A DNA stretch of 64,000 nucleotides, from the NCBI RefSeq assembly GCF_030384885.1, contig NZ_CP128613.1. One strand, written 5' to 3'. This DNA is from Escherichia coli. GTDB lineage: Bacteria; Pseudomonadota; Gammaproteobacteria; Enterobacterales; Enterobacteriaceae. Below are positions 57,753 to 57,847 of the stretch, in pieces (the first letter of the stretch is position 1; every line of letters starts with the position of its first letter). The position numbers and the translations under genes are program-made. Under the pieces are notes generated by a model. That model made no database searches. It was not told the origin of the DNA and was given only the letters and a program-made list of their open reading frames with translations.

Positions 57753-57847
57753 CATCACAAGAATTTCACTCTCACAGTTGTTGCTGCAAATTGCAGCAAA
57801 GGGTAATTGATAGTTATTAATCAGAGGGTGTGACATTCATCGCAACA

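Follow-up and report, generated by a model that had tools for sequence, protein, structure and literature searches.

The gntP and uxuAB genes of Escherichia coli form a textbook pair of divergent promoters, and hexuronate use is important in gut colonisation. In the DNA analysed here, a stretch of 64,000 nucleotides of an E. coli chromosome that we refer to as the window, the spacer between uxuA and gntP also contains a perfect 19-bp palindrome, and the question raised by this locus is what the palindrome is. Our preferred explanation, advanced tentatively and with confidence somewhat short of even, is that it represents an Escherichia-specific candidate binding site for a symmetric regulator acting mainly on gntP. 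If this is true, one regulatory input is missing from the model of hexuronate use, even though gntP-uxuAB is counted as fully explained by CRP, UxuR and ExuR. If the palindrome is neutral, it provides a clean case of a short promoter-spacer palindrome perfected and extended by templated mutation. Either outcome would be a small refinement, and a candidate operator is ordinary in kind.

Architecture of the uxuA-gntP spacer

The genes of this region are arranged in the order uxuR, uxuB, uxuA (minus strand), gntP (plus strand) and fimH-fimD (minus strand), and the palindrome is localised to the 339-bp spacer (57577–57915) between the divergent uxuA and gntP (Table 1). This spacer is 100% identical to that of strain 2013C-4282 and 97–98% identical to that of most other E. 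coli. Our comparison set further included other Escherichia, four Citrobacter genomes with divergent gntP-uxuA, and Enterobacter, Cedecea, Shimwellia and Edwardsiella.

Table 1. Coordinates of genes, regulatory elements and palindrome subsites in and around the spacer; positions are those of the window.
Feature	Position	Strand	Remarks
uxuA, mannonate dehydratase	56392–57576	-	
Inferred uxuA promoter	57699–57727	-	-35 TTGACA (57727–57722), 17-bp spacer, -10 GAACTT (57704–57699)
UxuR/ExuR-type box 1, AAATTGGTTAACCA	57739–57752		uxuA side; core invariant in Escherichia and Citrobacter
Inferred CRP site for uxuA, TGTGAtgtggtTAACC	57744–57759	-	centre 57751.5; overlaps box 1; about -61 from inferred start
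Palindrome, TTGCTGCAA-A-TTGCAGCAA	57781–57799		K-12 MG1655 equivalent 4551413–4551431; identical in K-12
Subsite 1, TTGC-T-GCAA	57781–57789		own 4-1-4 palindrome; read from sequence
Subsite 2, TTGC-A-GCAA	57791–57799		10 bp (one helical turn) from subsite 1
Inferred CRP site for gntP, TGTGAcattcaTCGCA	57829–57844	+	centre 57836.5, about -41.5
UxuR/ExuR-type box 2, ATGGTTGACCAATTT	57848–57862		gntP side; 106 bp from box 1
Inferred gntP -10 hexamer, TAACAT	57866–57871	+	inside ACATAACAT block, kept from Escherichia to Edwardsiella
Third, weaker UxuR-like box, cGGTTCAACCAg	57889–57900		gntP 5' leader; kept in Citrobacter
gntP, fructuronate/gluconate permease	57916–59259	+	

An earlier note on this DNA had placed two hexuronate-repressor-like operators on either side of the palindrome. 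Both were found where it had put them (boxes 1 and 2) and both are conserved across genera, box 2 being kept in Citrobacter and Edwardsiella and box 1 in Citrobacter. The note had missed the CRP sites that flank the palindrome and the third UxuR-like box; at the position of the latter, Edwardsiella carries a perfect AAATTGGTTGACCAAAT. Genomic SELEX has shown that UxuR binds the uxuA-gntP spacer, with two UxuR sites reported in the operon region (PMC5934670), and both uxuA and gntP are CRP SELEX targets (PMC3105977). The passage of a 2018 analysis of CRP feed-forward loops that deals with these genes lists gntP and uxuA twice each in the incoherent type 1 class; it names none of the regulators in these pairs, which we read as UxuR and ExuR.

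The promoter elements of both genes are shared well beyond Escherichia. On the uxuA side, the sequence TTGACA-N17-GAAYTT is kept in Escherichia, Citrobacter, Enterobacter and Cedecea, and Shimwellia has the variant -10 hexamer GATGTT. The TGTGA half beside box 1 is found in most genera compared and is missing in E. albertii, one Citrobacter and Shimwellia. The gntP-side CRP site (TGTGA-N6-TCGCA) is kept in Escherichia, Citrobacter and Edwardsiella. From these elements we infer that uxuA would be transcribed from near 57692 and gntP from near 57878, which would place the centre of the palindrome at about -98 and about -88, respectively. CRP would then act in a class I-like position (about -61) at uxuA and in a class II position (-41.5) at gntP, with a UxuR box overlapping or abutting each of the two sites. 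A strict consensus promoter scan of the spacer returned no promoter, the putative uxuA promoter being likewise undetected.

The two CRP sites are 85 bp apart, and the centre of the palindrome falls between them at distances of 38.5 and 46.5 bp; its distances to the centres of the UxuR boxes are 42 bp (about 4 helical turns) and 64 bp (about 6). The distance between these boxes is 106 bp in Escherichia and 104–105 bp in Citrobacter (about 10 helical turns), and the DNA between them is unalignable across the two genera. This fixed spacing suggests a constraint on distance or phase, for example looping between two operator/CRP modules.

Several other features of the spacer were recorded. The uxuA 5' leader contains an Escherichia-specific insertion of about 78 nt (approximately 57598–57675), absent from Citrobacter and near-invariant in E. 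coli, which includes the hairpin dyads GGGTTCC...GGAACCC and ATCCGATGCAAC...GTTGTTCATCCGGAT and has no Rfam match. In several RefSeq records the locus-tag series omits a number between uxuA and gntP (for example RS14690 to RS14700), probably corresponding to a since-withdrawn feature once annotated in the spacer. An open reading frame of 102 amino acids (57528–57836) that spans unconserved spacer was considered as a hidden small gene and rejected.

Symmetry of the palindrome and its likeness to known sites

Direct reading of residues 57781–57799 gives TTGCTGCAAATTGCAGCAA, a perfect 9-1-9 palindrome centred on A57790. Its arms (57781–57789 and 57791–57799) are exact reverse complements, as the earlier note had reported, and the flanks lie outside the dyad. 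Both arms also fit TTGCNGCAA (TTGC-N-GCAA), so that the palindrome can also be read as a tandem pair of 9-bp palindromes repeating every 10 bp.

Chance expectations were obtained by first-order Markov simulation of the window, which reproduces its dinucleotide make-up. For perfect palindromes whose arms reach 9 or more and whose gap does not exceed 3, the expectation is 0.91 per 64-kb window (0.22 for a gap of 1), or about 0.005 when scaled to the 339-bp spacer; the window contains four. With up to three mismatches allowed, the palindrome pattern occurs once in the window versus 0.03 expected, and the single 9-mer pattern TTGCNGCAA shows no enrichment there (4 found versus 3 expected). The other perfect palindromes in the window are CCTGACTGATCAGTCAGG (9-0-9, 46185–46202), GTGCTGAATGTATTCAGCAC (9-2-9, 11015–11034) and GAGCCTGCC-ATT-GGCAGGCTC (59270–59290). 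The last of these begins 11 bp past the gntP stop and is probably the stem of the gntP terminator.

The palindrome was compared with the sites of the regulators already assigned to this region. The earlier note had stated that it resembles neither the hexuronate-repressor consensus nor a CRP site, and this was borne out, since the palindrome lacks both TTGGTnnACCAA and TGTGA-N6-TCACA. As a UxuR/ExuR operator (TTGGT-N2-ACCAA) it fails for want of the GT-N-AC core that both true boxes have, and as a CRP site its nearest reading, TGCTG-N7-CAGCA, has both the halves and the spacing wrong for a 22-bp dyad. Like the operators of UxuR and ExuR, which are of the GntR/FadR type, the palindrome is symmetric and sits in this intergenic region, and at 42 and 64 bp from the boxes it is in helical phase with both. 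These properties, together with the two UxuR sites reported in the operon region (PMC5934670), could be taken to indicate an atypical extra site for UxuR, ExuR, a UxuR-ExuR heterodimer or CRP. We consider this highly improbable: boxes 1 and 2 already account for both SELEX sites, neither the GntR/FadR-type GT...AC core nor the TGTGA/TCACA halves are present, and genera with the same regulators and boxes are without the palindrome. Conservation across Enterobacterales, seen for the true boxes, is not shared by the palindrome, which is confined to Escherichia.

Operators of the LacI family consist of half-sites TGnAAnC / GnTTnCA abutting a central CG (14–16 bp). The palindrome has no CG at its centre, and the halves of TGCAA-A-TTGCA would need to be 3 bp further apart, which excludes such operators, including those of Cra, PurR, GntR/IdnR and CytR. 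Within this family CytR deserves separate comment, its operators being repeats of the octamer GTTGCATT about 2 bp apart beside CRP sites. The palindrome resembles these in its TTGCA/TGCAA pentamers, in the direct TTGC repeats 10 bp apart on each strand and in its location between two CRP sites. It differs in that only 1 bp separates its inverted pentamers, where about 4 would be expected, its octamers match at only 5 of 8 positions, and the CRP sites lie 38.5 and 46.5 bp away rather than about 26 bp each. Searchable papers on gntP or uxuA plus CytR report no CytR action on either gene.

Further classes of site were rejected on sequence or geometry. A sigma-54 promoter (GG-N10-GC; TGGCAC-N5-TTGCA) is excluded by the lack of GG 12 bp upstream of either TTGC. 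No intrinsic terminator appeared in our scan, neither strand has a T run after the stem, and both neighbouring genes diverge from the spacer. Patterns for IHF, LexA, FNR, NsrR, PutA, MarR/SlyA and AtoC/NtrC were wrong in spacing or in sequence, and the palindrome fits none of the operator patterns that we compared in this way. Genomic SELEX in K-12 W3110 identified an RpoH holoenzyme site in the spacer (intensity 5.0 versus a cut-off of 3.0; PMC5493296). We found neither a convincing CTTGAA/CCCCAT pair involving the palindrome nor a convincing sigma-32 promoter.

The geometry of the palindrome, as distinct from its sequence, has counterparts among well-characterised operators. As a 19-bp dyad with a single central base, it matches TetR- and Fur-type 9-1-9 sites, though in geometry only. 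Both tetO, bound by TetR, and the 19-bp Fur box are 9-1-9 dyad operators of dimeric repressors. The likeness extends to the perfect or near-perfect dyad, the one central base and the setting in a divergent promoter region. However, there is no sequence similarity, the palindrome is upstream of both promoters (by about 90–100 bp) and not over their -35 and -10 elements, and the neighbouring genes uxuR, hypT and yjiR include no evident cognate repressor. No gene of the TetR or Fur family was identified within 44 kb of the palindrome. A second analogy is offered by the ribbon-helix-helix proteins MetJ and Arc, which are dimer-of-dimers repressors on tandem short palindromic subsites. The palindrome likewise has two self-symmetric 9-bp subsites about one helical turn apart, but the analogy is purely architectural and no such protein is linked to the gntP-uxuA locus.

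The only concrete candidate for a protein at this position is Fis, and it is a weak one. As an architectural nucleoid protein, Fis would bend the DNA that separates the two CRP/UxuR modules and link gntP/uxuAB expression to growth phase. The 15-bp core of the Fis consensus, GNTYAAAWTTTRANC, combines G and C at -7 and +7, respectively, with an A/T-rich centre; it has A/T at ±3 and Y/R at ±4, which are among its more informative positions. The corresponding core of the palindrome, GCTGCAAATTGCAGC, scores 9 of 13 against this consensus: it agrees at both ±7 positions (G and C), has T/A at -5/+5 and is A/T across its five central bases. Its closest relative in 213 kb of K-12 sequence is the perfect palindrome TGCTGAAA-A-TTTCAGCA, whose core differs only at ±3, and a natural variant of the site found in the clade of uropathogenic E. 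coli (UPEC) 536 turns C at -3 to A, towards the consensus. Nonetheless, 9 of 13 is a weak score, and both halves of the palindrome have C/G at ±3 and G/C at ±4. Positions ±6, ±8 and ±9 and the exact symmetry are conserved without Fis needing them, and the Citrobacter spacers contain no consistent Fis-like site at that position. We therefore regard a Fis site as rather unlikely.

This closest relative, TGCTGAAAATTTCAGCA (K-12 4496304–4496320), serves as a comparison. It is an 8-1-8 palindrome upstream of leuX, in the ahr-leuX divergent region, and scores 11 of 13 against the Fis consensus. Relative to the inferred leuX promoter (TTGCAT-N16-TATAAT), its centre is at -70, where Fis site I of stable-RNA promoters is classically located, and the palindrome fits such a site. 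The two palindromes share G/C at ±7, an A/T centre and a perfect dyad upstream of a promoter. The uxuA-gntP palindrome differs in being centred at -88/-98 and not at -71, in its C/G at ±3 and in its conservation at positions to which Fis is indifferent. The leuX palindrome and gntP lie at opposite borders of the leuX genomic island.

Searches for additional copies of the palindrome gave negative results throughout their scope. BLAST identified it at one place per genome in 5308 E. coli genomes, which argues against a repeat family at the sensitivity of BLAST and excludes a dispersed repeat such as REP/BIME, a MITE or an IS end. The plasmid and phage collections contained no other full-length copy and only 17–18-nt partial matches. 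A near match inside epd was dismissed as a chance coding-sequence coincidence. When the K-12 sugar-acid loci, 213 kb in all (about 5% of the K-12 genome), were scanned with mismatches allowed, no second tandem site emerged. The regions upstream of uidA and uidR contain UxuR boxes and other dyads (CTGTGT-GCA-ACACAG) and no TTGCNGCAA-like sequence. The 19-mer, its core and a dyad at this position are all unmentioned in the searchable literature, although the older papers on uxuAB (1986) and gntP (1996 and 2004) may mention them; papers containing both 9-mers proved to be unrelated primer matches.

Conservation in Escherichia and after loss of gntP

Of the 5426 complete E. coli genomes, 5401 have the locus and 5308 carry the exact 19-mer, once each; 98.3% of the genomes with the locus (5308/5401) thus have the perfect palindrome. 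The left arm is broken in a 30-genome clade that includes UPEC 536 (TTGCTGAAA), and about 63 further E. coli genomes carry other variants of the palindrome. The surrounding 69 bp constitute a polymorphism hot spot, in which other strains are 87–93% identical to the window, and the flank position G57801A is polymorphic in 1107 genomes. Among seven diverse gntP-containing strains, 10 of the 14 variable positions of the spacer fall within the 50 bp that flank the palindrome. The corresponding proportions of variable positions are 0 of 19 in the palindrome and 10 of 50 in the flanking spacer (Fisher p=0.03). Based on these sequence comparisons, the palindrome is an island of conservation within the fastest-evolving part of the spacer.

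Conservation extends to other Escherichia. Escherichia sp. 93.0816 retains the palindrome at 19 of 19 positions and E. albertii at 18 of 19, versus 70% identity in the flanks of the latter (P=0.01); this statistic and that obtained within E. coli are moderate, with p of about 0.01–0.03 each. Because the arms of the E. coli and E. albertii palindromes show zero compensatory changes, the sequence itself has been retained and not its symmetry alone. In contrast, no equivalent palindrome was identified in the Citrobacter spacers or in the Edwardsiella gntP upstream region, despite the same CRP and UxuR boxes. The earlier note had made conservation in close relatives a test of its proposal; the palindrome is conserved within Escherichia and is absent from Citrobacter and Edwardsiella, which share the promoter architecture. 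Since these two genera keep that architecture without it, the palindrome is dispensable for basic regulation.

The single E. albertii substitution and the sequence around it have a bearing on two other explanations. In E. albertii the dyad has grown to 14-1-14, with five extra pairs, its left flank having changed to complement the right flank. This extension looks like the product of hairpin-templated mutation, and no protein-site model needs it. Position 16 of the palindrome is G in E. coli and A in E. albertii and in both lineages that lack gntP (described below), so the G appears to be derived in E. coli, where the change perfected the dyad.

The first of these explanations denies the element any function: hairpin-templated (template-switch) mutation would have made a neutral quasi-palindrome perfect and would maintain it, and short divergence times and chance would account for its conservation in E. 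coli. The E. albertii dyad, with a 13-bp stem and several adjacent changes in the left flank, has the signature of templated mutation, and the apparently derived G at position 16, the persistence of the broken-arm allele in a 30-genome clade and the absence of the palindrome from Citrobacter and Edwardsiella with identical CRP/UxuR architecture all agree with neutrality. However, templated correction would keep symmetry and not sequence: given flanks about 30% diverged, about 3 of the 9 arm pairs would be expected to have changed relative to E. albertii, and none has. The distribution of polymorphic sites within E. coli (0/19 versus 10/50) is also at odds with neutrality, as is the fate of the palindrome after loss of gntP, when it decays at the rate of its flanks and thus shows no intrinsic upkeep. 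Taking both sides together, we consider the neutral origin unlikely, while treating it as a serious contender.

The second explanation is an RNA hairpin, for example a stabiliser or processing site, in a transcript crossing the spacer towards uxuA. The palindrome could form an 8-bp stem (-10.8 kcal/mol, z = -2.8), and the E. albertii version a 13-bp stem (-18.2 kcal/mol, z = -3.6). The lone E. albertii substitution would be a G.U wobble on the uxuA-sense strand and an A.C mismatch on the other. Yet folding on both strands is common to any palindrome, and the arms are without compensatory pairs. The element is also positioned upstream of both inferred promoters, by about 98 bp for uxuA and about 88 bp for gntP, which is outside any known transcript, and no promoter-like site, terminator-like T run or Rfam match accompanies it. 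The Rfam search covered 57400–58100 and gave no match at E values up to 1. A functional RNA hairpin is accordingly improbable in our assessment.

The lineages without gntP permit a comparison in which the palindrome and its neighbours behave differently. In strain 6EVA and the GTDB representative SCPM-O-B-8794, nanM is found beside uxuA and gntP is absent. Such an absence is consistent with a deletion extending from the leuX island (PMC4374849). Here the palindrome matches at 14–15 of 19 positions, which is no better than the flanks, and the two lineages differ from each other at 3 of 19; because they share derived states, they amount to approximately one independent observation. The gntP-side CRP site and UxuR box 2 are still identical at 32–33 of 34 positions. 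This pattern suggests that the constraint on the palindrome may depend on gntP. Among the 5426 complete genomes, nanM/nanS-like genes directly adjoin uxuA, with fim and gntP gone, in three. The surviving CRP site and UxuR box in the gntP-less lineages front nothing obvious.

A candidate site proposed to serve gntP

Returning to the preferred explanation of a candidate site for a symmetric regulator, we propose that the palindrome arose in the Escherichia lineage as a cis-regulatory protein-binding site within an otherwise unconstrained spacer. The flanking divergent promoters of gntP and uxuAB are activated by CRP and repressed by UxuR/ExuR. A symmetric protein would bind between them, either as a single dimer occupying the whole 9-1-9 dyad or as a pair of dimers, one per tandem TTGCNGCAA subsite, and could modulate CRP-dependent activation or the approximately 106-bp UxuR-UxuR arrangement. 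The site would mainly serve gntP, because the palindrome decays after deletion of this gene while the adjacent CRP site and UxuR box persist. The promoter positions, protein binding and the gene served are what we infer here from properties that were seen directly, namely the sequence, its uniqueness and the pattern of its conservation. The earlier note had regarded the palindrome as most likely the site of a dimeric regulator. Conservation above the flanks in E. coli and E. albertii and decay with gntP loss lend indirect support to that part of its reading, and the searches described above brought no second site to light.

In a more specific form of this proposal, which we offer as a long shot, the palindrome would be the single chromosomal operator of an Escherichia regulator and provide a third, lineage-specific input to the hexuronate regulon. 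Such an input would, for example, be UidR/GusR, a member of the TetR family, linking glucuronide sensing to fructuronate uptake, or a y-gene regulator acting with CRP at gntP. A regulator of this kind would explain both the appearance of the site in Escherichia and its decay with gntP loss. The broken-arm allele of the UPEC 536 clade represents a natural variant with which the site could be tested.

The wider comparison also yielded observations on the neighbouring genes. Edwardsiella piscicida GntP is 94.6% identical to E. coli GntP, near the 96% of Citrobacter though the genus is distant, which suggests horizontal transfer. There, gntP adjoins a gene for a GntR/FCD-family regulator and not uxuA, and a SlyA-like dyad, ATAGCAAGCTAT, is found upstream. 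Citrobacter has two or three copies of uxuA, one of which is 92–95% identical to that of E. coli and lies beside gntP, whereas one of about 78% identity is located elsewhere. Finally, the window contains an open reading frame of 169 amino acids at 60366–60875; the place of fimG in 2013C-4282 is annotated as a 444-nt 'fimbrial protein' versus 504 nt in K-12, a difference in length that probably reflects start-codon calling.
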